Assembly (NCBI GenBank): GCA_964016885.1
Contig: OZ024762.1
Location: forward strand, 4,650,001-4,714,000
Reading direction: 5' to 3'
Origin: Eledone cirrhosa
Lineage: Eukaryota
DNA: 64,000 bases
The notes under the pieces are model-generated. The model did no database searches. It saw nothing but the letters and a program-made list of their open reading frames with translations, and was not told where the DNA came from. Within the stretch, counting starts at the first letter, position 1. The number at the start of each line of letters is the position of its first letter. Both the position numbers and the translations under genes were made by a program. Shown here piece by piece: positions 3,705 through 50,255 of the stretch.

Positions 3705-4335
3705 AATTTGTTGGTAATTCAACAAATATAAATGTTTATAACTGATTCAGAGCACTCGACAAATTTTCTGGAGTATAATATTCAATGATATTAAATAAAT
3801 AGAAACTATATTTATTAAACCATATTTATTCTATTATATATATTTCAAGGGTACCAAAACTTTGGTACGCACTCGTCAGATAAAATACAAAGTTTGTTTT
3901 ATAAATATTGACATATCCAGGAATGAGACCTTGGCGGTTCAACTTTTACCTGGATAGTGTGCTTCGAATAAGTTATAAATATATATATTTGTTGAATTAC
4001 CAACAAATTAAATACCCCTTTGCTTATATATATATATAAATATATAAATATATATGAGGGGAGGGTGTATTACCAAAACTTTGGTACGCACTCGTCAGAT
4101 AAAATACAAAGTTTGTTTTATAAATTTTGACATAACCAAGAAACGATACCTTAACGGTTCAAGTTTTTCTTGGACCGTTAAGGTATCGTTTCTTGGTTAT
4201 GTCAAAATTTATAAAACAAACTTTGTATTTTATCTGATGAAAGCGTACCAAAGTTTTGGTACCCTTGAAATATATATAATAGAATAAATATGGTTTAATA
4301 AATATAGTTTCTATTTATTTAATATCATTGAATAT
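3705..4335. mobile_element. Penelope-like pseudo-LTR fragments (family B): one reverse copy plus an inverted pair
   Basis: Same ~250-bp AT-rich unit recurs at 16917-17160, 17415-17510, 21556-21710, 33540-33785, 37590-37822 and 37848-38182; contains a hammerhead motif; always adjacent to (TA)n. Confidence 0.7.
4226..4286 (+). ncRNA. Type I hammerhead ribozyme motif (minimal, palindromic stem III)
   Basis: Stem I TATTTTAT / ATAGAATA; CTGATGA 4234-4240; stem II GTACCA..TGGTAC; GAAA 4267-4270; stem III TATATA; UH = TA. Confidence 0.7.
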
Positions 4336-16918: not shown

Positions 16919-17155
16919 ATGATATTAATAAATGGAAACTATATTTATAAAACCATATTTATTCTGTTATATATATTTCAAGGGTACCAAAACTTTGGTA
17001 CGCTCTCATCAGATAAAATACAAAGTTTGTTTTATAAATATTGACATATCTAGGAATGAGACCTTGGCGGTTCAAGTTTTACCTGGATAGTTTGCTTTGA
17101 ATCAGTTATAAATATATATATTTGTTGAATTACCAACAAATTAAATACCCCTTTG

Positions 17156-17192
<37 letters not shown>

Positions 17193-17335
17193 GGAGGGTG
17201 TATTACCAAAATTAGATTAAAGATGCCATGTCTGAGAATATCAGAAACATATGCCATACCCCCTGTGGAATAAACTCAAAAATTCCAAGTAATAAATGCG
17301 AGCATTTATTAACATTAAATTAAAAGTCAAATGAC

Positions 17336-17415
<80 letters not shown>

Positions 17416-17737
17416 GATATTAAATAAATGGAAACTATATTTATAAAACCATATTTATTTCATTATATATATTTCAGGGATATCACATTAAAAATATGGT
17501 ATGCCTTCTTCATATATATATATGTTTCTTTATTAGCCACAGGGGCACAAAAGAAGGGGACAAATACAAAGGGGGAAGTTTACATACAATAAAAACGTGT
17601 AAAATGTTATCACAAATGCAATTTAAAAAATTAGTCGATTTTCCCCAATAGGGGGAGACAGTTCATATGGGTAATACATACCCCCGAAAAAATGTGCAAC
17701 CCTCATCTCCAGGAGTACGAAGAGTTTGTACTCCTTT

Positions 17738-21293: not shown

Positions 21294-21343
<50 letters not shown>

Positions 21344-21489
21344 GCAGAATATATAATGTGTATATATATATATATATATATGTATGTACATATGCATGTA
21401 TATATATATATATAAATATACATATGCATATTTATCTATGTACATATGCATGTGTTTATATATATGTGTTTATATATATATATATGTGT

Positions 21490-21557
<68 letters not shown>

Positions 21558-22122
21558 GATATTAAACAAATGGAAAGTATATTTATAAACCATATTTATT
21601 TCATTATACATATTTCGGGGATACCATATTAAAAATATGGCATGCCTTCGTCAGATAAAATACAATATATAAACAGTTTTATAAATAATGTTGACGTACC
21701 ATAAATATGAGCGACCATTATGTAGGAAGCTGGTTTGGTAGTGAAGTGTGTATAAATATTTAGTGTTAAGCACAGTTATAAAGAAAGACGGAGAAAAAGA
21801 AGGAATGTATGTAAAGAAAAACAGAGAGAAATAGAGAGAGATAGGGGAGAGAGAAATAAGGAGGAGGTGAAAAAAGAAAGGCAACCGAAGGCAACAGATG
21901 AATAATAATAATTCATCATACAAATTGAGAGATTTAAGAGGGAGGGAGTACGGTAATTATTTAGTTATAGTGTTAAGGACAGTTATCCGGGATCCTGGAT
22001 AACAAGGTGTCGAGATGTTTCTTGAAGACATCCATCTCCACGTCATGCAAATCTCTCATGTATATATATATACATGTATATATATACATGTATATATATA
22101 CATGTATATATAACTATATATA

Positions 22123-23108
22123 TAGCATCACTCATTCATAGGCTGACCAAGATACTCTCATGGAATGACCAAATGAGGTTTATTTTTCAACATGCAAGAT
22201 TGCACAGCTCTAGCATCACTCCTTCATAGGCTGACCAAGATACTCTCATGGAATGACCAAATGAGGTTTATTTTTCAACATGCAAGATTTCACAGCTCTA
22301 GCATCACTCCTTCATAGGCTGACCAAGATACTCTCATGGAATGACCAAATGAGGTTTATTTTTCAACATGCAAGATTTCACAGCTCTAGCATCACTCCTT
22401 CATAGGCTGACCAAGATACTCTCATGGAATGACCAAATGAGGTTTATTTTTCAACATGCAAGATTGCACAGCTCTAGCATCACTCCTTCATAGGCTGACC
22501 AAGATACTCTCATGGAATGACCAAATGAGGTTTATTTTTCAACATGCAAGATTGCATAGCTCTAGCATCACTCCTTCATAGGCTGACCAAGATACTCTCA
22601 TGGAATGACCAAATGAGGTATATTTTTCAACATGCAAGATTGCACAGCTCTAGCATCACTCCTTCATAGGCTGACCAAGATACTCTCATGGAATGACCAA
22701 ATGAGGTTTATTTTTCAACATGCAAGATTTCACAGCTCTAGCATCACTCCTTCATAGGCTGACCAAGATACTCTCATGGAATGACCAAATGATGTTTATT
22801 TTTCAACATGCAAGATTGCACAGCTCTAGCATCACTCCTTCATAGGCTGACCAAGATACTCTCATGGAATGACCAAATGAGGTTTATTTTTCAACATGCA
22901 AGATTGCACAGTCCTAGCATCACTCCTTCATAGGCTGACCAAGATACTCTCATGGAATGACCAAATGTGGTTTATTTTTCAACATGCAAGATTTCGCAGC
23001 ACTAGCATCACTCTTTCATAAGCTGACCAAGATGCTCTCATGGAATGATCAAATGAGGTATATTTTTCAACATGCAAGATTGCACAGCCTTAGCATCACT
23101 CCTTCATA
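22123..23108 (+). repeat. 88-bp tandem array A1 (~11 units + 18 bp)
   Basis: Unit TAGCATCACTCCTTCATAGGCTGACCAAGATACTCTCATGGAATGACCAAATGAGGTTTATTTTTCAACATGCAAGATT(G/T)CACAGCTC. Confidence 0.97.
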
Positions 23109-23689
23109 GTGAGCCTATGAACTTTTAAGCCTACCTTATATGCAAATAATGTAAGTATATACAAATAATTACTAAGAAATTCGAAATAATTTTTGCACCC
23201 ATTTTTGCGATTAAGTAAAGACGGAGTTATCGTTCTTCAGATTTCGGCTCGGAGAAATTTAAGGAACTGATGTCGCTAAATCGCCAAATCATTTACCTGC
23301 CCCGTTGCATCATGGGAGGGTAATGGCTGCCTTTTATTTTTTAAACGATGGCAGATTCTTTAGTTTCTCTCGCAACATCTTGTTCCTTGTTTCATGTAAG
23401 TAAATAATTAAAACATTTTGGCGAGAAAGATATTAAAAAGACTGCCATGGTTTTCGAAAAATAAAAGGCAGCCATTACCCTCCCATGAGGCAACGGGGCA
23501 AGTAAATGATTTGGCGATTTAGCGACATCAGTTCCTCAAATTTCCTAGAGCCGAAATCTCAAGAACGATAACTCCGTCTTTACTTAATCGCAAAAATGGG
23601 TGCAAAAATTATTTCGAATTTCTTAGTAATTATTTGTATATACTTACATTACTTGCATATAAGGTAGGCTTAAAAGTTCATAGGCTCAC
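23109..23689. mobile_element. 581-bp palindromic MITE-like core, copy 1
   Basis: ~230-bp inverted arms GTGAGCCTATGAAC... / ...GTTCATAGGCTCAC around a ~115-bp weakly symmetric centre. Confidence 0.85.
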
Positions 23690-26082
23690 TATGAAAGAGT
23701 GATGCTAAGGCTGTGCAATCTTGCATGTTGAAAAATAAACCTCATTTGGTCATTCCATGAGAGTATCTTGGTCAGCCTATGAAGGAGTGATGCTAGAGCT
23801 GTGCAATCTTGCATGTTTAAAAATATACCTCATTTGGTCATTCCATGAGAGTATCTTGGTCAGCCTATGAAGGAGTGATGCTAGAGCTATGCAATCTTGC
23901 ATGTTGAAAAATAAACCTCATTTGGTCATTCCATGAGAGTATCTTGGTCAGCCTATGAAGGAGTGATGCTAGAGCTGTGCAATCTTTCATGTTAAAAATA
24001 AACATCATTTGGTCATTCCATGAGAGTATCTTGGTCAGCCTATGAAGGAGTGATGCTAGAGCTGTGCAATCTTGCATGTTGAAAAATATACCTCATTTGG
24101 TCATTCCATGAGAGTATCTTGGTCAGCCTATGAAGGAGTGATGCTAGAGCTATGCAATCTTGCATGTTGAAAAATAAACCTCATTTGGTCATTCCATGAG
24201 AGTATCTTGGTCAGCCTATGAAGGAGTGATGCTAGAGCTGTGCAATCTTTCATGTTGAAAAATAAACCTCATTTGGTCATTCCATGAGAGTATCTTGGTC
24301 AGCCTATGAAGGAGTGATGCTAGGACTGTGAAATCTTGCATGTTGAAAAATAAACCTCATTTGGTCATTCCATGAGAGTATCTTGGTCAGCCTATGAAGG
24401 AGTGATGCTAGAGCTGTGCAATCTTGCATGTTGAAAAATATACCTCATTTGGTCATTCCATGAGAGTATCTTGGTCAGCCTATGAAGGAGTGATGCTAGA
24501 GCTGTGCAATGTTGCATGTTGAAAAATATACCTCATTTGGTCATTCCATGAGAGTATCTTGGTCAGCCTATGAAGGAGTGATGCTAGAGCTATGCAATCT
24601 TGCATGTTGAAAAATAAACCTCATTTGGTCATTCCATGAGAGTATCTTGGTCAGCCTATGAAGGAGTGATGCTAGAGCTGTGAAATCTTGCATGTTGAAA
24701 AATAAACCTCATTTGGTCATTCCATGAGAGTATCTTGGTCAGCCTATGAAGGAGTGATGCTAGAGCTGTGAAATCTTGCATGGTGAAAAATAAACCTCAT
24801 TTGGTCATTCCATGAGAGTATCTTGGTCAGCCTATGAAGGAGTGATGCTAGAGCTGTGAAATCTTGCATGTTGAAAAATAAACCTCATTTGGTCATTCCA
24901 TGAGAGTATCTTGGTCAGCCTATGAAGGAGTGATGCTAGAGCTGTGCAATCTTTCATGTTGAAAAATAAACATCATTTGGTCATTCCATGAGAGTATCTT
25001 GGTCAGACTATGAAGGAGTGATGCTAGAGCTGTGCAATCTTGCATGTTGAAAAATATACCTCATTTGGTCATTCCATGAGAGTATCTTGGTCAGCCTATG
25101 AAGGAGTGATGCTAGAGCTGTGCAATCTTGCATGTTGAAAAATAAACCTCATTTGGTCATTCCATGAGAGTATCTTGGTCAACCTATGAAGGAGTGATGC
25201 TATGGCTGTGAAATCTTGCATGTTGATAAATAAACCTCATTTGGTCATTCCATGAGAGTATCTTGGTCAGCCTATGAAGGAGTGATGCTAGAGCTGTTAA
25301 ATCTTGCATGTTGAAAAATAAACCTCATTTGGTCATTCCATGAGAGTATCTTGGTCAGCCTATGAAGGAGTGATGCTAGAACTGTGCAATCTTTCATGTT
25401 GAAAAATAAACATCATTTGGTCATTCCATGAGAGTATGTTGGTCAGCCTATGAAGGAGTGATGCTAGAGCTGTGAAATCTTGCATGTTGAAAAATAAACC
25501 TCATTTGGTCATTCCATGAGAGTATCTTGGTCAGCCTATGAAGGAGTGATGCTATGGCTGTGAAATCTTGCATTTTGAAAAATAAACCTCATTTGGTCAT
25601 TCCATGAGAGTATCTTGGTCAGCCTATGAAGGAGTGATGCTAGAGCTGTGCAATCTTGCATGTTGAAAAATAAACCTCATTTGGTCATTCCATGAGAGTA
25701 TCTTGGTCAGCCTATGAAGGATTGATCCTAGAGCTGTGCAATCTTGCATGTTGAAAAATAAACCTCATTTGGTCATTCCATGAGAGTATCTTGGTCAGCC
25801 TATGAAGTAGTGATGCTAGAGCTGTGAAATCTTGCATGTTGAAAAATAAACCTCATTTGGTCATTCCATGAGAGTATCTTGGTCAGCCTATGAAGGATTG
25901 ATCCTAGAGCTGTGAAATCTTGCATGTTGAAAAATAAACCTCATTTGGTCATTCCATGAGAGTATCTTGGTCAGCCTATGGAGGAGTGATGCTAGAGCTG
26001 TGCAATCTTGCATATTGAAAAATAAACCTCATTTGGTCATTCCATGAGAGTATCTTGGTCAGCCTATCAAAGAGTGATGCTA
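23690..26082 (-). repeat. 88-bp tandem array A2, inverted (~27 units)
   Basis: Reverse complement of the A1 unit. Confidence 0.97.
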
Positions 26083-26194
26083 TATATATATATATATATA
26101 TAGTTATATATACATGTATATATATATACATGTATATATATATACATGTATATATATACATGTATATATATACATGTATATATAACTATATATA

Positions 26195-26916
26195 TAGCAT
26201 CACTTCTTCATAGGCTGACCAAGATACTTTCATGGAATGACCAAATGAGGTTTATTTTTCAACATGCAAGATTTCACAGCTCTAGCATCACTCCTTCATA
26301 AGCTGACCAAGATACTCTCATGGAATGACCAAATGAGGTTTATTTTTCAACATGCAAGATTGCACAGCTCTAGCATCACTCTTTCATAGGCTGACCAAGA
26401 TACTCTCATGGAATGACCAAATGAGGTTTATTTTTCAACATGCAAGATTTCACAGCTCTAGCATCACTCCTTCATAGGCTGACCAAGATACTCTCATGGA
26501 ATGACCAAATGAGGTTTATTTTTCAACATGCAAGATTTCACAGCTCTAGCATCACTCCTTCATAGGCTGACCAAGATACTCTCATGGAATGACCAAATGA
26601 TGTTTATTTTTCAACATGCAAGATTGCACAGCTCTAGCATCACTCCTTCATAGGCTGACCAAGATACTCTCATGGAATGACCAAATGAGGTTTATTTTTC
26701 AACATGCAAGATTGCACAGCTCTAGCATCACTCCTTCATAGGCTGACCAAGATACTCTCATGGAATGACGAAATGAGGTTTATTTTTCAACATGCAAGAT
26801 TTCACAGCTCTAGCATCACTCCTTCATAGGGTGACCAAGATACTGTCATGGAATGACCAAATGAGGTTTATTTTTCAACATGCAAGATTTCACAGCTCTA
26901 GCATCACTCCTTCATA
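26195..26916 (+). repeat. 88-bp tandem array A3 (~8 units)
   Basis: Same unit, forward. Confidence 0.97.
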
Positions 26917-27497
26917 GTGAGCCTATGAACTTTTAAGCCTACCTTATATGCAAACAATGTAAGTATATACAAATAATTACTAAGAAATTCAAAATAATTT
27001 TTGCACCCATTTTTGCGATTAAGTAAAGACGGAGTTATCGTTCTTGAGATTTCGGCTCGGAGAAATTTAAGGAACTGATGTCGCTAAATCGCCAAATCAT
27101 TTACCTGCCCCGTTGCCTCATGGGAGGGTAATGGCTGCCTTTTATTTTTTAAACGATGGCAGATTCTTTAGTTTCTCTCGCAGCATCTTCTTCCTTGTTT
27201 TATATAAGTAAATAATTAAAACATTTTGGCGAGAAAGATATTAAAAAGACTGCCATGGTTTTCGAAAAATAAAAGGCAGCCATTACCCTCCCATGATGCA
27301 ACGGGGCAGGTAAATGATTTGGCGATTTAGCGACATCAGTTCCTCAAATTTCCCAGAGCCGAAATCTCAAGAACGATAACTCCGTCTTTACTTAATCGCA
27401 AAAATGGGTGCAAAAATTATTTCGAATTTCTTAGTAATTATTTGTATATACTTACATTGTTTGCATATAAGGTAGGCTTAAAAGTTCATAGGCTCAC
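26917..27497. mobile_element. 581-bp palindromic core, copy 2
   Basis: Near-identical to copy 1; centre in the same orientation. Confidence 0.85.
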
Positions 27498-29451
27498 TAT
27501 GAAAGAGTGATGCTAGGGCTGTGCAATCTTGCATGTTGAAAAATAAACCTCATTTGGTCATTCCATGAGAGTATCTTGGTCAGCCTATGAAGGAGTGATG
27601 CTAGAGCTGTGAAATCTTGCATGTTGAAAAATAAACCTCATTTGGTCATTCCATGAGAGTATCTTGGTCAGCCTATGAAGGAGTGATGCTAGAGCTGTGA
27701 AATCTTGCATGTTGAAAAATAAACCTCATTTGGTCATTCCATGAGAGTATCTTGGTCAGCCTATGAAGGAGTGGTGCTAGAGCTGTGAAATCTTGCATGT
27801 TGAAAAATAAACCTCATTTGGTCATTCCATGAGAGTATCTTGGTCAGCCTATGAAGGAGTGATGCTAGGACTGTGAAATCTTGCATGTTGAAAAATAAAC
27901 CTCATTTGGTCATTCCATGAGAGTATCTGGGTCAGCCTATGAAGGAGTGATGCTAGAGCTGTGCAATCTTTCACGTTGAAAAATAAACATCATTTGGTCA
28001 TTCCATGAGAGTATCTTGGTCAGCCTATGAAGGAGTGATGCTAGAGCTGTGCAATCTTGCATGTTGAAAAATATACCTCATTTGGTCATTCCATGAGAGT
28101 ATCTTGGTCAGCCTATGAAGAAGTGATGCTAGAGCTGTGAAATCTTGCATCTTGAAAAATAAACCTCATTTGGTCATTCCATGAGAGTATCTTGGTCAGC
28201 CTATGAAGGAGTGATGCTAGAACTGTGCAATCTTTCATGTTGAAAAATAAACATCATTTGGTCATTCCATGAGATTATCTTGGTCAGCCTATGAAGGAGT
28301 GATGCTAGAGCGGTGCAATCTTGCATGTTGAAAAATATACCTCATTTGGTCATTCCATGAGAGTATCTTGGTCAGCCTATGAAGGAGTGATGCTAGAGCT
28401 GTGCAATCTTGCATGTTGAAAAATAAACCTCATTTGGTCATTCCATGAGAGTATCTTGGTCAGCCTATGAAGGAGTGATGCTAGAGCTGTGAAATCTTGC
28501 ATGTTGAAAAATAAACCTCATTTGGTCATTCCATGAGAGTATCTTGGTCAGCCTATGAAGGAGTGATGCTATGGCTGTGAAATCTTGCATGTTGAAAAAT
28601 AAACCTCATTTGGTCATTCCTTGAGAGTATCTTGGTCAGCCTATGAAGGAGTGATGCTAGAGCTGTGAAATCTTGCATGTTGAAAAATAAACCTCATTTG
28701 GTCATTCCATGAGAGTATCTTGGTCAGCCTATGAAGGAGTGATGCTAGAGCTGTGCAATCTTGCATGTCGAAAAATAAACCTCATTTGGTCATTCCATGA
28801 GAGTATCTTGGTCAGCCTATGAAGGAGTGATGCTAGAGCTGTGAAATCTTGCATGTTGAAAAATAAACATCATTTGGTCATTCCATGAGAGTATCTTGGT
28901 CAACCTATGAAGGAGTGATGCTATGGCTGTGAAATCTTGCATGTTGAAAAATAAACCTCATTTGGTCATTCCATGAGAGTATCTTGGTCAGCCTATGAAG
29001 GAGTGATGCTAGAGCTGTGCAATCTTGCATGTTGAAAAATAAACCTCATTTGGTCATTCCATGAGAGTATCTTGGTCAGCCTATGAAGGATTGATCCTAG
29101 AGCTGTGCAATCTTGCATGTTGAAAAATAAACCTCATTTGGTCATTCCATGAGAGCATCTTGGTCAGCCTATGAAGTAGTGATGCTAGAGCTGTGAAATC
29201 TTGCATGTTGAAAAATAAACCTCATTTGGTCATTCCATGAGAGTATCTTGGTCAGCCTATGAAGGAGTGATGCTAGAGCTGTGAAATCTTGCATGTTGAA
29301 AAATTAACCTCATTTGGTCATTCTATAAGAGTATCTTGGTCAGCCTATGAAAGAGTGATCCTAGAGCTGTGAAATCTTGCATGTTGAAAAATAAACCTCA
29401 TTTGATCATTCCATGAGAGTATCTTGGTCAGCCTATGAAAGAGTGATGCTA
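27498..29451 (-). repeat. 88-bp tandem array A4, inverted (~22 units)
   Basis: Same unit, reverse. Confidence 0.97.
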
Positions 29452-29559
29452 TATATATATATATATAGTTATAAATACATGTATATATATATACATGTAT
29501 ATATATATACATGTATATATATACATGTATATATATACATGTATATATAACTATATATA

Positions 29560-31073
29560 TAGCATCACTTTTTCATAGGCTGACCAAGATACTCTCATGG
29601 AATGACCAAATGAGGTTTATTTTTCAACATGCAAGATTTCACAGCTCTAGCATCACTCCTTCATAGGCTGACCAAGATACTGTCATGGAATGACCAAATG
29701 AGGTTTATTTTTCAACATGCAAGATTTCACAGCTCTAGCATCACTCCTTCATAGGCTGACCAAGATACTCTCATGGAATGACCAAATGAGGTTTATTTTT
29801 CAAGATGCAAGATTGCACAGCTCTAGCATCACTCCTTCATAGGCTGACCAAGATACTCTCATGGAATGACCAAATGAGGTTTATTTTTCAACATGCAAGA
29901 TTTCACAGCTCTAGCATCACTCCTTCATAGACTGACCAAGATATTCTCATGGAATGACCAAATGAGGTTTATTTTTCAACACGCTAGATTTCACAGCTCT
30001 AGCATCACTCCTTCATAGGCTGACCAAGATACTCTCATGGAATGACCAAATGAGGTTTATTTTTCAACATGCAAGATTTCACAGCCCTAGCATCTCTCCT
30101 TCATAGGCTGACCAAGATACTCTCATGGAATGACCAAATGAGGTTTATTTTTCAACATGCAAGATTTCACAGCTCTAGCATCACTCCTTCATAGGCTGGC
30201 CAAGATACTCTCATGGAATGACCAAATGAGGTTTATTTTTCAACATGCAAGATTTCACAGCTCTAGCATCACTCCTTCATAGGCTGACCAAGATACTCTC
30301 ATGGAATGACCAAATGAGGTTTATTTTTCAACATGCAAGATTTCACAGCTCTAGCATCACTCCTTCATAGGCTGACCAAGATACTCTCATGGAATGACCA
30401 AATGATGTTTATTTTTCAACATGCAAGATTGCACAGCTCTAGCATCACTCCTTCATAGGCTGACCAAGATACTCTCATGGAATGACCAAATGAGGTTTAT
30501 TTTTCAACATGCAAGATTGCACAGCTCTAGCATCACTCCTTCATAGGCTGACCAAGATACTCTCATGGAATGACCAAATGAGGTTTATTTTTCAACATGC
30601 AAGATTTCACAGCCCTAGCATCTCTCCTTCATAGGCTGACCAAGATACTCTCATGGAATGACCAAATGATGTTTATTTTTCAACATGCAAGATTGCACAG
30701 CTCTAGCATCACTCCTTCATAGGCTGACCAAGATACTCTCATGGAATGACCAAATGAGGTTTATTTTTCAACATGCAAGATTGCACAGCTCTAGCATCAC
30801 TCCTTCATAGGCTGACCAAGATACTCTCATGGAATGACCAAATGAGGTTTATTTTTCAACATGCAAGATTTCACAGCCCTAGCATCTCTCCTTCATAGGC
30901 TGACCAAGATACTCTCATGGAATGACCAAATGAGGTTTATTTTTCAACATGCAAGATTGCACAGCTCTAGCATCACTCCTTCATAGGCTGACCAAGATAC
31001 TCTCATGGAATGACCAAATGAGGTTTATTTTTCAACATGCAAGATTTCACAGCCCTAGCATCACTCCTTCATA
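29560..31073 (+). repeat. 88-bp tandem array A5 (~17 units)
   Basis: Same unit, forward. Confidence 0.97.
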
Positions 31074-31654
31074 GTGAGCCTATGAACTTTTAAGCCTACC
31101 TTATATGCAAGTAATGTAAGTATATACAAATAATTACTAAGAAATTCGAAATAATTTTTGCACCCATTTTTGCGATTAAGTAAAGACGGAGTTATCGTTC
31201 TTCAGATTTCGGCTCGGAGAAATTTAAGGAACTGATGTCGCTAAATCGCCAAATCATTTACCTGCCTCGTTGCCTCATGGGAGGGTAATGGCTGCCTTTT
31301 ATTTTTTAAACGATGGCAGATTCTTTAGTTTCTCTCGCAACATCTTGTTCCTTGTTTCATATAAGTAAATAATTAAAACATTTTGGCGAGAAAGATATTA
31401 AAAAGACTGCCATGGTTTTCGAAAAATAAAAGGCAGCCATTACCCTCCCATGATGCAACGGGGCAAGTAAATGATTTGGCGATTTAGCGACATCAGTCCC
31501 TCAAATTTCCCAGAGCCGAAATCTCAAGAACGATAACTCCGTCTTTACTTAATCGCAAAAATGAGTGCAAAAATTATTTCGAATTTCTTAGTAATTATTT
31601 GCATATACTTACATTGTTTGCATATAAGGTAGGCTTAAAAGTTCATAGGCTCAC
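31074..31654. mobile_element. 581-bp palindromic core, copy 3
   Basis: Near-identical to copies 1 and 2; centre in the same orientation. Confidence 0.85.
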
Positions 31655-33080
31655 TATGAAAGAGTGATGCTAACGCTGTGCAATCTTGCATGTTGAAAAA
31701 TAAACCTCATTTGGTCATTCCATGAGAGTATCTTGGTCAGCCTATGAAGGAGTGATGCTAGAGCTGTGCAATCTTGCATGTTGAGAAATAAACCTCATTT
31801 GGTCATTCCATGAGAGTATCTTGGTCAGCCTATGAAGGAGTGATGCTAGAGCTGTGCAATCTTTCATGTTGAAAAATAAACCTCATTTGGTCATTCCATG
31901 AGAGTATCTTGGTCAGCCTATGAAGGAGTGATGCTAGAGCTGTGAAATCTTGCATGTTGAAAAATATACCTCATTTGGTCATTCCATGAGAGTATCTTGG
32001 TCAGCCTATGAAGGAGTGATGCTAGGGCTGTGAAATCTTGCATGTTGAAAAATAAACCTCATTTGGTCCTTCCATGAGAGTATCTTGGTCAGCCTATGAA
32101 GGAGTGATGCTAGAGCTGTGCAATCTTGCATGTTGAAAAATAAACCTCATTTGGTCATTCCATGAGAGTATCTTGGTCAGCCTATGAAGGAGTGATGCTA
32201 TGGCTGTGAAATCTTGCATGTTGAAAATTAAACCTCATTTGGTCATTCCATGAGATTATCTTGGTCAGCCTATGAAGGAGTGATGCTAGAGCTGTGAAAT
32301 CTTGCATGTTGAAAAATAAACCCCATTTGGTCATTCCATGAGAGTATCTTGGTCAGCCTATGAAGGAGTGGTGCTAGAGCTGTGCAATCTTGCATGTTGA
32401 AAAATAAACCTCATTTGGTCATTCCATGAGAGTATCTTGGTCAGCCTATGAAGTAGTGATGCTAGAGCTGTGAAATCTTGCATGTTGAAAAATAAACCTC
32501 ATTTGGTCATTCCATGAGAGTATCTTGGTCAGCCTATGAAGGAGTGATGTTAGAGCTGTGAAATCTTGCATGTTGAAAAATAAACCTCATTTGGTCATTC
32601 CATGAGAGTATCTTGGTCAGCCTATGAAGGAGTGATGCTAGAGCTGTGCAATCTTGCATGTTGAAAAATAAACCTCATTTGGTCATTCCATGAGAGTATC
32701 TTGGTCAGCCTATGAAGGAGTGATGCTAGAGCTGTGAAATCTTGCATGTCGAAAAATAAACCTCATTTGGTCATTCAATGAGAATATCTTGGTCAGCCTA
32801 TGAAGGAGTGATGCTAGAGCTGTGAAATCTTGCATGTTGAAAAATAAACCTCATTTGGTCATTCCATGAGAGTATCTTGGTCAGCCTATGAAGGAGTGAT
32901 GCTAGAGCTGTGAAATCTTGCATGTTGAAAAATAAACCTCATTTGGTCATTCCATGAGAGTATCTTGGTCAGCCTATGAAGGAGTGATGCTAGAGCTGTG
33001 AAATCTTGCATGTTGAAAAATAAACCTCATTTGATCATTCCATGAGAGTATCTTGGTCATCCTATGAAGGAGTGATGCTA
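31655..33080 (-). repeat. 88-bp tandem array A6, inverted (~16 units)
   Basis: Same unit, reverse. Confidence 0.97.
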
Positions 33081-33191
33081 TATATATATATATATATAGT
33101 TATATATACATGTATATATATATATACATGTATATATATATACATGTATATATATATACATGTATATATATATACATGTATATATATATAC

Positions 33192-33270
33192 ATGAGAGAT
33201 TTGCATGACGTGGGGGTGGATGTCTTCAAGAAACATCTCGACACCTTTTTATCCAGGATCCCGGATAACT
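33192..33270 (+). mobile_element. CR1-group LINE C-terminal remnant inside the right outer arm; mirror at ~21983-22060
   Basis: Reads MRDLHDVGVDVFKKHLDTFLSRIPDN, like the FKxxLDxFLxxIPD ending of CR1-group ORF2. Confidence 0.55.
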
Positions 33271-33588
33271 GTCCTTAACACTATAACTAAATAATTACCG
33301 TACTCCCTCCCTCTTAAATCTCTCAATTTGTATGATGAATTATTATTATTCATCTGTTGCCTTCGGTTGCCTCTCTTTTTTCACCTCCTCCTTATTTCTC
33401 TCTCCCCTATCTCTCTCTATTTCTCTCTGTTTTTCTTTACATACATTCCTTCTTTTTCTCCGTCTTTCTTTATAACTGTGCTTAACACTAAATATTTATA
33501 AACACTTCACTACCAAATCAGCTTCCTACATAATGGTCGCTCATATTTATGGTACGTCAAAATTATTTATAAAACTGTTTATATATTG

Positions 33589-33654
33589 TATTTTATCTGA
33601 CGAAGGCATGCCATATTTTTAATATGGTATCCCCGAAATATGTATAATGAAATA
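33589..33654 (+). ncRNA. Type I hammerhead motif in the right outer arm; mirror on the minus strand at ~21597-21662
   Basis: Stem I TATTTTAT / ATGAAATA; CTGACGA 33597-33603; stem II ATGCCATATT / AATATGGTAT; GAAA 33635-33638; predicted cleavage after A33646. Confidence 0.7.
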
Positions 33655-34112
33655 AATATGGTTTTATAAATATAGTTTCCATTTGTTTAATATCGTATAT
33701 CTACTCCAAAAACTTGTCGAGTGCTTTATATCAGTTATAAAATATTTACTTGTTGTAACCCAACAATTTTAAATAAAACTTTTGCATATATATATATATA
33801 TATATGTACGTATGCATGTATATATATATATGTACATATGCATTTATATATATATGTACATATGCATGTTTCCTTAGCTGTTGACTTACCATCCAATCTC
33901 CGTTAATAGTATTTCATATCCTGTCTCAATTGGGAGACTTCCCGTGTGTTGTCCTCATGTAAACAAATATTTCCTCTCGTCCCTTAGTCCTCTTCATTCC
34001 ACTTTCTCATGTCATATAACACTCTACTATACTAATATGATAGTCACATATCCAACGTGTATCTGTCTGTCTTTCCTACCATTTATCACGAATTTCACTT
34101 TTTCTTTCTCTG

Positions 34113-36380: not shown

Positions 36381-36806
36381 GTACCAGTAATGTACTGGTT
36401 AATTGCTGGCCTTGTGCCTAAAGTAGAAACAATTATTATTATTATTATTATTATATATATGTGTGTGTGTGTGTGTGTACCAGCAGCATAAACGCCACTC
36501 CATCTCACCAGCATATCCATTACCACTAACAACAGCAGCACATCGCCACCATCACCACCACGATAGCATCCGCCACCATAACCATCTAAACTTCATCTAC
36601 CACCACCACCACCACCACTATCTAGACTGCATCAACCACCACCACCACCACCACCACTATCTAGACTGCATCAACCACCACCACCACCACCACCACTATC
36701 TAGACTGCATCTACCACCTGTTTTTAACATTCATCATTCTGTAAATAAACAAAACTTAAATAACTGCGTCGCACAACCAGGTGAACAGGTTTCGTCCGTG
36801 CTACTG

Positions 36807-37445
36807 ATCACGTCCTCAGTCACGTTAGTCCCGCGATCACGTCCTCAGTCACGTTAGTCCCGCGATCACGTCCTCAGTCACGTTAGTCCCGTAATCACGT
36901 CCTCAGTCACGTTAGTCCCGCGATCACGTCCTCAGTCACGTTAGTCCCGTAATCACGTACCCAATCACGCTAGTCCTGTAACCACGTCCCTAATCACGCT
37001 AGTCCAGTGATCATGTTCGCAGTCACGCTCTTCTAGGGATTACGTCCCCAGTCACGTTAGTCCCGTTATCACGTCCCCAGTCACGCTAGTCCCGTTATCA
37101 CGTCCCCAGTCACGTTAGTCCCGTAATCACGTACCCAATCACGCTAGTCCTGTAACCACGTCCCTAATCACGCTAGTCCAGTGATCATGTTCGCAGTCAC
37201 GCTCTTCTAGGGATTACGTTCCCAGTCACGTTAGTCCCGTTATCACGTCCCCAGTCACGCTAGTCCCGTTATCACGTCCCCAGTCACGCTAGTCCCGTTA
37301 TCACGTCCCCAGTCACGCTAGTCCCGTTATCACGTCCCCAGTCACGCTAGTCCCGTTATCACGTCCCCAGTCACGCTCGTCCCGTTATCACGTCCCCAGT
37401 CACGTTAATCCCGTGATCACGTCCCCAGTCACGCTCGTCCTGTTA
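36807..37445. repeat. 29-bp CpG-rich minisatellite (ATCACGTCCCCAGTCACGCTAGTCCCGTT), ~22 units
   Basis: Direct observation; a block of variant units is itself duplicated (~36950-37070 vs ~37125-37245). Confidence 0.92.
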
Positions 37446-37589
37446 TCTGTCCCAAGTTATAATTATGTAACCACGGCCTGAACTACACTCGTCATGTGAT
37501 CACGGCCCGAGTGGCGCTCAAATTACGCTCTTCTCGCGATCACGTCCCGGGTTACACGGTTGGAGCTTCCTGGATATCCAGGTATTCCG

Positions 37590-38182
37590 GGTATGTCAAT
37601 ATTTATTTATAAAACAAATGTGTATTTTATCTGATGAAAGCGCACCATAATTTGCCTTGGTGGCCCTTGAAATATGTATAATAAAATAAATATGGTTTTA
37701 TAAATATAGTTTCCATTTATTAATATATTGTGTATTTACTCCACTAATCTGTTGAGTGCTTTATATCAGTTATAAAAATGTTTAAGCTTGTTGAATCCCA
37801 ACAAATTAAATATAACCTCTGCATATATATATATATATATATATATACGATATTAAACAAATAGAAACTATATTTATAAAACCATATTTATTTCATTATA
37901 CATATTTCAGGGATACCATATTAAAAATATGGCATGCCTTCTTCAGATAAAATACAATATATAAGCAGTTTTATAAATAAATTTGACGTACCATAAAATA
38001 TTGATCAACTTCCATTTAAAAAAGTATCCTTGAAATATGTATAATGAAATAAATATGGTTTTATAAATATAATTTCCATTTGTTTAATATCGTATATCTA
38101 CTCCAAAACTTGTTGAGTGCTTTATATCAGTTATAAAATATTTACTCGTTGTAACCCAACAATTTTAAATAAAACTTTTGCA
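37590..38182. mobile_element. Penelope-like family B: one forward copy plus an inverted pair
   Basis: CTGATGA 37631-37637 (+) and CTGAAGA 37946-37940 (-); reverse arm starts TATACGATATTAAAC at 37848. Confidence 0.7.
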
Positions 38183-49439: not shown

Positions 49440-50255
49440 AGGCCGTCTGCTCCATACAAAGCTTGACCACTTCTTGCACTTTATGTCTGTTCCTTCCTGG
49501 CATGAGATCTTAAATGGCTTTTGAGTCCTGAAAGCCTGTAAAACACCCATCCACAAATAATACAATGATGTCTCATTTCGTTCTTGTGTCCTCTTTGGGT
49601 TTGCTTATTCTATATGTCCAGATCTCGCTTCAATCCACCACCTGATTTGCAAACATGGCACTGGAACAGATTATCTGCAATGAAGTTTGAATGGTCAACC
49701 GGGACTTTACCATCAAGTACTCGTTGGTGTGACTTCAAGTCAACATTTGAAAGGCACTCCTTGGGATACACAGGGTATTTGACAACCAACTCTGGATAAG
49801 ATTCATCATTATTACTGTTGGTCCCATTCTTCCAGGCTTTTCTTTTCAGCTCTACATATTTTACCCTCTCCATTTCAAATGGTTTATCTCCATTCCAGGC
49901 CACTCCATCTGCTGCACATGATTCAACATTTTTGTATACGAGATGTGATTTCAGTATCCAATTTACCATCAGCTTCTATCCTACTGCCAAGGTATTCAAA
50001 TGAGGTCACCGTCCTTAGCATTGTGCCCTTAACGAGGATTTAAGATGAATTTTTCTGCTCCCCAGGAGAAGGTTGATGCACTACAACTGTTTTTTTTTCA
50101 AATTAATTATAAGACAGAACACATAACAAGCAGCGTCGAAACCACTGATCAGGCTTTGCAAGCCTCACTGTTACTTATTAGATCGCAGCCATCTGCCAAT
50201 AGAAAGTCACGGATGAAACAGGTGAAGATGTTAGAGTTGATTATCAATGAATGCT
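49440..50255 (-). mobile_element. Decayed RTE-type LINE (RT and C-terminal region)
   Basis: Minus strand FIRDFLLADGCDL (YADD-box equivalent), TVTSFEYLGS, and FQCHVCKSGGGLKR finger remnant. Confidence 0.65.

Follow-up and report, generated by a model that had tools for sequence, protein, structure and literature searches.

An inverted pair of Penelope-like ends enclosing mariner-derived satellite palindromes in Eledone cirrhosa

What kind of sequence is a 12-kb fold-back structure that carries hammerhead-like motifs at both ends and three satellite palindromes in between? The structure lies in a 64-kb window (the whole stretch of Eledone cirrhosa DNA analysed), and the first-pass annotation had considered a giant non-autonomous element or a hairpin-RNA locus. 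Our comparison with the rest of the assembly leads to a different answer: the locus is a one-off composite and not a single element, in which an inverted Penelope pair encloses mariner-derived satellite palindromes. An outer arm is followed by three modules (array, core, inverted array; six arrays and three cores altogether) and by the inverted outer arm:

21294..21555, no strand: target compound (TA)n microsatellite, left half, with a 12-mer motif
21556..21985, minus: left Penelope-like (PLE) arm, a 5'-truncated copy of the last 430 bp whose outward 3' end has no tail
21597-21662, minus: left minimal type I hammerhead-like motif, pointing outward; no Rfam match
21985..22058, minus: LINE 3'-end piece, 74 bp, starting at the base of a 16-bp quasi-palindrome
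22059..22122, no strand: linker, (TA)n-CATG, self-complementary
22123..23140, plus: array 1, with 11 88-bp units of mariner-MITE origin, closed by a mariner terminal-repeat remnant (23112-23140)
23141..23657, plus: core 1, fold-back of a ~240 bp low-copy one-sided sequence, spacer ~110 bp
23658..26082, minus: array 2 (27 units) next to an inverted copy of the terminal-repeat remnant
26083..26194, no strand: inter-module linker, a right-end linker fused to a left-end linker
26195..29451, plus: module 2, with array 3 (8 units), core 2 (26949-27465) and inverted array 4 (22 units)
29452..29559, no strand: inter-module linker
29560..33080, plus: module 3, with array 5 (17 units), core 3 (31106-31622) and inverted array 6 (16 units)
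33081..33192, no strand: right (TA)n-CATG linker
33193..33266, plus: LINE 3' piece, mirror copy, same junction to the PLE
33266..33696, plus: right PLE arm (last 430 bp)
33589-33654, plus: right minimal type I hammerhead-like motif, pointing outward; no Rfam match
33697..33785, plus: PLE tail, 89 bp, at this end only
33786..33870, no strand: target microsatellite, right half; the sequence beyond is single-copy in the assembly

Repeat and arm comparison bears out the layout first described, with its outer arms, three modules and palindromic (TA)n-CATG linkers, but the modules are direct tandem copies and not nested mirror images. The six period-88 arrays (22123-23109, 23689-26082, 26195-26917, 27497-29451, 29560-31074 and 31654-33080) comprise 11.2, 27.2, 8.2, 22.2, 17.2 and 16.2 copies, which confirms the six-array pattern but yields 101 full-length units instead of about 102 (11, 27, 8, 22, 17, 16). 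As claimed, the right arm runs to 33696; because the 89-bp PLE tail sits at the right side only, however, the right end of the locus is 33785. No transposase or reverse transcriptase (RT) frame of at least 100 aa lies within the structure, again as stated, and the only listed frame of that size is a low-complexity one of 101 aa in the left arm. The same 12-mer motif occurs in both flanks (four forward occurrences in the window, two left and two right of the insertion), so the flanks are one microsatellite split by the insertion. A paralogous empty site was not found in the assembly.

An assembly artefact, produced by fold-back reads or mis-joined repeats, is very improbable. The runs searched consist of short contigs and RAD reads, none of which bridged the PLE-LINE junction or the locus, an outcome that counts neither for nor against the structure, and the array lengths and module number could be misassembled. 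On the other hand, the two arms differ at nine sites, their ends are unlike but each correct for the family, the order of variants is distinct in all six arrays, the three palindromic cores are 11-13 substitutions apart in 520 (with the same spacer orientation in all), and the same module is present at dozens of other loci. The single-copy right flank was found without differences in sequencing runs X1 and X2, which derive from one sample, possibly the assembled one.

In each outer arm, 430 bp from the 3' end of a high-copy PLE meets 74 bp of a LINE end, unrelated to it, at 21985/33266. Between the arms (21556-22060 and 33191-33696), 9 of 506 positions differ (eight substitutions, one indel), and the PLE portions account for five substitutions in 430. 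The PLE parent is represented by a 750-aa frame (L217:1552-3801) with a copy of the arm on either side. Searched directly against Pfam and PDB, this frame had no match; some members of its Atlas neighbours (0.96-0.99) have HTH_animal, GIY-YIG and RVT_1 domains, and RT and GIY-YIG motifs were recognised in the frame by eye. At the locus, as in all 11 other complete inverted PLE pairs, the copies are inverted and 5'-truncated, and one end is tail-less while the other bears the 89-bp tail, both within (TA)n; this count is made without L018 (second arm without a 3' end) and L021 (second arm a 27-bp stub), and with the overlapping loci L020 and L022 entered once. These traits and the hammerhead motif in the terminal repeat place the outer arms in an EN+ Penelope-like family that encodes an RT plus a GIY-YIG endonuclease. 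EN+ PLEs with inverted pLTRs, as described in PMC8557442 and PMC11167929, likewise comprise a 5'-truncated inverted pair with a tail at one end in a (TA)n target, a hammerhead motif in the repeat and a parent ORF with RT plus, at its C-terminus, a GIY-YIG-like domain. Their tail measures 30-40 bp versus 89 bp here, and our locus, unlike them, holds 11.3 kb of palindromic cargo that is not PLE and is joined identically to the two arms.

The suggested link to Penelope-like elements and their hammerheads is thus borne out by arm identity. What had been called well-formed, outward-pointing type I hammerheads are outward core motifs indeed, and all 16 PLE copies examined (76-100% alike) retain the core boxes together with a variable stem II, but the motifs are minimal: stem III has 3 bp with a 2-nt loop, the register of stem I is the best of five offsets, and unconstrained folding does not predict the catalytic topology. 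Rfam reported no hammerhead over 20-35 kb, in a focused scan of the motifs or in the 88-bp tandem unit. The ends match those of all 11 other pairs, and inverted pairs whose 3' ends face outward make up at least 16 of the 35 other top-scoring PLE sites, so a bracket of hammerheads belongs to ordinary PLE anatomy and is nothing special to this locus; the motifs are passengers of the PLE ends. Retrozymes are short head-to-tail hammerhead monomers, a pattern that two inverted motifs 12 kb apart do not match.

The cargo has its own ancestry. Mariner-type MITE monomers of ~200 bp (L173-L177), an intermediate with two 88-bp units (L181) and a locus with both halves of the unit plus Transposase_1 (L185; PF01359, E 2e-12) show that the 88-bp unit derives from a Tc1/mariner MITE, whose TA-flanked terminal inverted repeats are shared with the transposase-bearing parent; the kinship with transposon-derived satellites proposed earlier is thereby upheld. 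For the core, a parent transposon was not found, and its relatives are one-sided low-copy sequences. In miDNA4 and Tetris (listed in PMC9659126), tandem units were also born inside a Tc1/mariner MITE, as long inverted arms, whereas the arrays here lack an outer terminal repeat, have neither termini in common nor a readable target duplication, and belong to a family whose scanned part yielded no transposase.

The arm, the 88-bp unit and the module are each found on their own elsewhere in the assembly. The PLE-module junction is present only at the two ends of the locus, identical on both sides, and searches at one and two mismatches recovered no other copy, and no source junction, in the assembly. 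Since the junction is unique while the parts occur independently, the locus is a composite and the idea of one giant non-autonomous element family is not supported; independent occurrence of the components was also the first part of a refuting condition set in the first-pass annotation. At other loci, the arm of the module regularly includes the LINE 3' piece; a terminus of a transposon in the 78 bp inside the PLE arm was considered and rejected, the piece being a LINE 3' end. Three of four breakpoints seen inside the LINE piece fall within one 16-bp quasi-palindrome, a post hoc count to be set against five such mini-stems in 236 bp. Galileo is a Foldback element with long inverted arms. Conserved termini and a target duplication in several copies, which would characterise an element of the Foldback/Galileo type, were not found: the junction is unique, the termini are those of a PLE and module ends vary. 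A target duplication is unreadable at the locus itself because the insertion lies inside (TA)n.

That the structure is a mobile, non-autonomous element, or a hairpin-RNA locus under selection, is very unlikely, even though PLE ends lie on both sides and the capacity to fold into kilobase-long hairpins was rightly predicted (4-11 kb, 96-97% complementary). The locus is single copy, and no host gene domain was detected among the 78 frames of the window, except for two weak matches on one frame at 62 kb. Moreover, genomic PLE ends, stopping at the reverse-transcription start site, would presumably lack the downstream ORF sequence needed in the system of PMC11167929. Over 20-35 kb Rfam gave only sub-threshold microRNA-like matches, which stem from hairpins and TA runs, and none on seven loci of the module family. 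The locus is most likely inert repeat DNA.

The module itself recurs at dozens of loci on five small contigs (C22-C26), where it forms tandem multimers and also occupies the middle of palindromes 30-43 kb long. All of the best 40 core matches fall on these contigs, which represent 4.9% of the genome; the closest relative among the cores compared lies ~1.2 Mb away on the same contig, and three variants are common to all three cores and the copy at C23:3.51 Mb. In four of six giant palindromes the arms diverge by 0-0.2% within a locus, against 1.5-4.4% between loci, and unit variants are mirror-imaged across the centre; at our locus, variant 83T is confined to arrays 1 and 2, and the cores show left/right swaps at mirror sites. 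These patterns argue that a symmetrising arm-to-arm exchange occurs in the family and at the locus. Fixed termini of the giant palindrome were rejected, as at other loci the homology of arm A runs on past its right end; the ends of modules differ from one locus to the next and often are TA runs. The copies contain transposon debris where sequence was read, and a scan of 41 of the 45 long frames (from 84 10-kb stretches, part of the family) and of 45 shorter frames found no transposase, Rep or helicase. Palindromic segmental duplications, which undergo arm-to-arm conversion, and fold-back inverted duplications have large inverted arms and a small spacer, and are closer within than between loci; here, in contrast, dozens of dispersed copies have one common centre module. 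Full-text searches of openly readable papers gave no description of the giant-palindrome family.

How did the module come to lie between PLE ends? We favour, at a probability of roughly 0.55, that a PLE inverted pair in a (TA)n microsatellite had its centre replaced by a nearby module through DNA repair, with symmetric joining. The pair would fold into a hairpin or cruciform whose paired stem would be severed, or trimmed back, at position 430; the trimmed stem would then join the paired stem of a folded module at 1-2 bp of microhomology. Alternatively, joining might occur on one side, followed by arm-to-arm conversion; either course would leave an identical junction on both sides. Unequal exchange at the self-complementary linkers would have multiplied the modules, whether they had already been captured or not. 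Consistent with such a capture, both outer ends are standard PLE 3' ends, the flanks continue one microsatellite, and two of 12 cargo-free PLE pairs (577/575 and 415/415) are likewise cut at equal positions in both arms. The arms share sub-lineage variants, as they do in the other PLE pairs that show variants. The single tail, the unique junction, the core variants in common with C23:3.51 Mb, the symmetrising exchange and, post hoc, the breakpoints in the 16-bp quasi-palindrome point the same way. The location of the cargo is also in favour: PLE copies are scattered genome-wide, C22-C26 hold one of the 35 other top-scoring PLE sites, and retrotransposition across the genome would rarely land among the module donors on these contigs. 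The joining step has left no direct trace, however, and none of 12 other PLE pairs contains more than 26 bp of foreign DNA, although these loci span +/-1.5 kb, in which long cargo is invisible. Late capture further predicts arms older than the cargo, unless they were homogenised, yet the PLE arms (5/430) are not older than the cores (11-13 in 520), and two of the six giant palindromes have arms as divergent as different loci (2.4% and 3.0%).

The similar age of arms and cores could instead reflect transduction, in which a chimeric RNA composed of module, LINE piece and PLE repeat serves the PLE enzyme for priming at both target strands, or the enzyme switches template to module RNA or DNA during insertion, and the two cDNAs anneal through the palindromic cargo. 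Such a process would yield identical junctions in one step. Among the 11 pairs the tail lies on the longer arm in five, on the shorter in five and on equal arms in one, which makes it probable that normal pairs have two RNA-templated arms. Plain snap-back of a single cDNA is disfavoured as their origin, and as a route to transduction, since it leaves the five pairs with the tail on the short arm unexplained. PMC11167929 describes a PLE protein that cuts both strands and extends them, beginning at two internal start sites by which the tail is delimited. PLEs are reported to take host DNA along in trans, enclosed by their repeats, in Adineta vaga (PMC3846280), where unrelated host sequence also lies inside PLE terminal repeats without a PLE ORF; there, however, a gene lies between direct pLTRs with a target duplication, and here a satellite palindrome between inverted arms, and the cargo's location suggests DNA-level capture in our case. 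Against transduction, the source junction is absent from the assembly, the locus sits among module donors, and reverse transcription would have to pass through 4-11 kb of 96-97% complementary hairpin; we regard it as possible but doubtful.

Homogenisation of arms raises a further alternative, that a single PLE landed at the right end of a module already resident in the microsatellite and that the left PLE arm was then copied from the right one. Such homogenisation is active in the module family, whose members frequently have TA runs at their ends. If copying went from one TA flank to the other, however, it should bring the tail along, yet the left end stops at the tail-less site as in all 11 normal pairs, and no outer-arm sequence of the module family flanks the locus, which makes this order of events unlikely.

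The locus is a clean record that inverted PLE pairs can accommodate foreign DNA on the scale of kilobases, joined symmetrically at the two sides, a point of relevance to the formation and repair of such pairs, and the 11 other pairs provide genomic support for two RNA-primed arms over simple self-priming. The giant-palindrome family is a more interesting lead than the locus itself: on five small contigs its 30-43-kb palindromes homogenise their arms, with no enzyme found so far, and could drive local rearrangement. Tentatively, the module may be the exchangeable heart of this transposase-free family, spreading locally as fold-back DNA, rebuilding both arms from one and graftable stem-to-stem into other palindromes, in which case the locus would be one such graft into a Penelope pair.

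The earlier map of the 12-kb fold-back, with six arrays of 88-bp units, three modules (array, palindromic core, inverted array), linkers and inverted outer arms, proved accurate. The window spans C23:4,650,001-4,714,000 within a 3.0-Gb assembly. Against the roughly 102 units of the first-pass annotation we count 101 full 88-bp units over the six arrays, and the linkers noted there as palindromic are self-complementary (TA)n-CATG sequences joining the modules. The three cores share one orientation and differ from each other at 11-13 of 520 sites; because ordered diagnostic variants are common to all three minus arrays, the modules are direct tandem copies. Over 506 bp, 8 substitutions and one indel separate the two outer arms. 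A 12-mer with four forward occurrences in the window is found twice in each flank, and therefore the whole structure interrupts one microsatellite. Sequencing runs from one sample, possibly the assembled individual, confirm only the right flank, and an assembly artefact is very improbable. Elsewhere in the window, 36805-37447 is a GC-richer 29-bp tandem repeat (22 copies), and a coding-like 121-aa frame at 49613-49975 (-) has no Pfam match.

Each outer arm has two parts. Its first 430 bp match a highly abundant repeat, for which a first look gave 3558 candidates, 40 of them scored; the inner 74 bp are a fragment of a LINE 3' end that elsewhere forms a constant 236-bp component of the module's arm. 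The arm repeat is a Penelope-like element (PLE). One long copy holds a 750-aa frame, and some members of its Atlas neighbours carry GIY-YIG, HTH_animal and RVT_1; since Pfam and PDB offer no direct match to this frame, the assignment also draws on by-eye reading of motifs and on the anatomy. Passages of PMC8557442 describe PLEs with an inverted truncated copy, a one-sided tail and a (TA)n target, and the ends of the locus have the same arrangement. At least 16 of 35 other scored PLE sites are inverted pairs with outward 3' ends. Among loci L001-L030 compared here, all 11 pairs having both 3' ends carry an 89-bp tail on exactly one arm, and the locus is likewise one-tailed (33697-33785). The tail is placed independently of arm length (longer arm 5, shorter 5, equal 1), and its position on the shorter arm in 5/11 pairs speaks against simple self-priming of a single cDNA. 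According to passages of PMC11167929, a PLE protein cuts and extends both strands, two start sites bound the tail, and the hammerhead is protein-assisted and dispensable for insertion in vitro. For the hammerhead previously called well-formed, the boxes and a variable stem II persist in 16/16 PLE copies examined, but stem III is minimal and Rfam scans do not recognise the motif. Diverged PLE subfamilies contribute further 3' ends to the window at 3787-4326, 16921-17516 and 37590-38093; these carry the same hammerhead motif, and some form inverted pairs.

The point at which PLE meets LINE (21985/33266) occurs twice in the assembly, at both ends of the locus and identically on each side, although such counts may be lower bounds. 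The centres of 12 other pairs hold at most 26 bp of foreign DNA each, long cargo being invisible in those short loci. The locus is thus a single case, an otherwise normal PLE pair whose centre is abnormal. As for components co-occurring elsewhere, arm, unit and module do recur, but separately, and the junction is found only here. The locus is real, its parts are of known kinds, and their combination is new.

The 88-bp unit has its origin in a mariner MITE. Both of its halves are present in dispersed, TA-flanked ~200-bp monomers, an otherwise whole MITE at one locus (L181, C20:6.52 Mb) contains two units, and a 1.25-kb relative bears transposase remnants (PF01359); the core-side end of each array is a remnant of the terminal repeat. 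Longer tandem variants with units of ~143 bp occur at C6:91.88 Mb (L178) and C12:32.59 Mb (L179), and tandem repeats of ~143-bp and of 88-bp units arose independently from the same MITE. Satellites born inside MITEs are already known from passages of PMC9659126. Searching with an exact 54-mer from the unit gives 770 matches, and among the first 100 listed, long arrays start only at C22. The core is a fold-back of a ~240-bp, low-copy sequence that is otherwise one-sided; of the 328 candidates for the core 40 were scored, every one of them on C22-C26. Long tandem multimers of the module comprise ten cores at C23:22.14-22.18 Mb and eight at C26:19.92-19.96 Mb.

Higher-order arrays and giant palindromes of the module family
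C23:22.13-22.19 Mb (L187-L192): higher-order arrays, up to ten modules, locus-specific linkers
C26:19.92-19.96 Mb (L219-L222): higher-order arrays, locus-specific linkers
C24:4.38-4.40 Mb and C24:5.93-5.94 Mb: further higher-order arrays, locus-specific linkers
C23:9372366-9415571 (9.37-9.42 Mb; L113-L116, L109-L110): 43-kb palindrome centred on module
C23:11783247-11816631 (11.78-11.82 Mb): 33-kb palindrome centred on module
C23:7.36-7.40, 14.39-14.43, 17.59-17.61 and 3.95-3.97 Mb: other giant palindromes

Each giant palindrome has at its centre either a module or a one-sided form of one, and the arms are homologous from locus to locus (64 candidates for the arm probe, mostly on C23). With a 2.2-kb probe, arms differ within a locus by 0.0, 0.1, 0.0 and 0.2% at four loci, a near-identity that assembly polishing could have inflated in some, and by 2.4 and 3.0% at two; between loci they differ by 1.5-4.4%. 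A LINE insertion is present on both sides in two loci, and unit variants mirror each other across the centre in some. The giant arm read consists of transposon debris, no fixed outer terminus was found for these palindromes, and the frames scanned from the family contain no transposase, Rep or helicase. A GC-richer segment of ~400 bp appears three times in the giant arm (L109:1600-1950, L109:3200-3620, L114:600-1000), at 70-83% identity, in both orientations and with no Rfam or Pfam match. At C1777:38590-48786 (L241-L242) family arm sequence surrounds a different, module-free ~8-kb centre of repeat runs and LINE fragments. C2H2 zinc-finger genes lie near loci of the family, and the genome is TA-rich; both traits may hint at a cephalopod.

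We consider it somewhat probable (roughly 0.55) that the cargo was captured from nearby DNA into a PLE pair, with a joining step that we infer. The locus sits amid donor module copies, although C22-C26 (4.9% of the genome) hold only 1/35 other PLE sites, and its cores have three variants in common with a copy at C23:3.51 Mb; the location, which is the chief clue, and the core variants favour a nearby source. The symmetric junctions would have formed either by joining of two paired stems or by a one-sided join followed by conversion, as suggested by arm-to-arm exchange, traces of which are seen both across the family and within module 1 of the locus, and by 2/12 cargo-free pairs that are symmetrically cut. 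On the other hand, PLE transduction from a chimeric RNA, the main rival, would explain the junction symmetry in one step, fits the similar age of arms and cores, and has a precedent for capture in passages of PMC3846280, but the assembly contains no source for the PLE-LINE junction, and we regard it as possible though rather unlikely. A module already residing in the microsatellite, into which one PLE inserted and had its arm copied across, is improbable; the family's outer-arm sequence does not flank the present locus. That the locus is a mobile or functional element is highly unlikely. The value of the locus lies mostly in the family of giant palindromes and in the symmetric capture.
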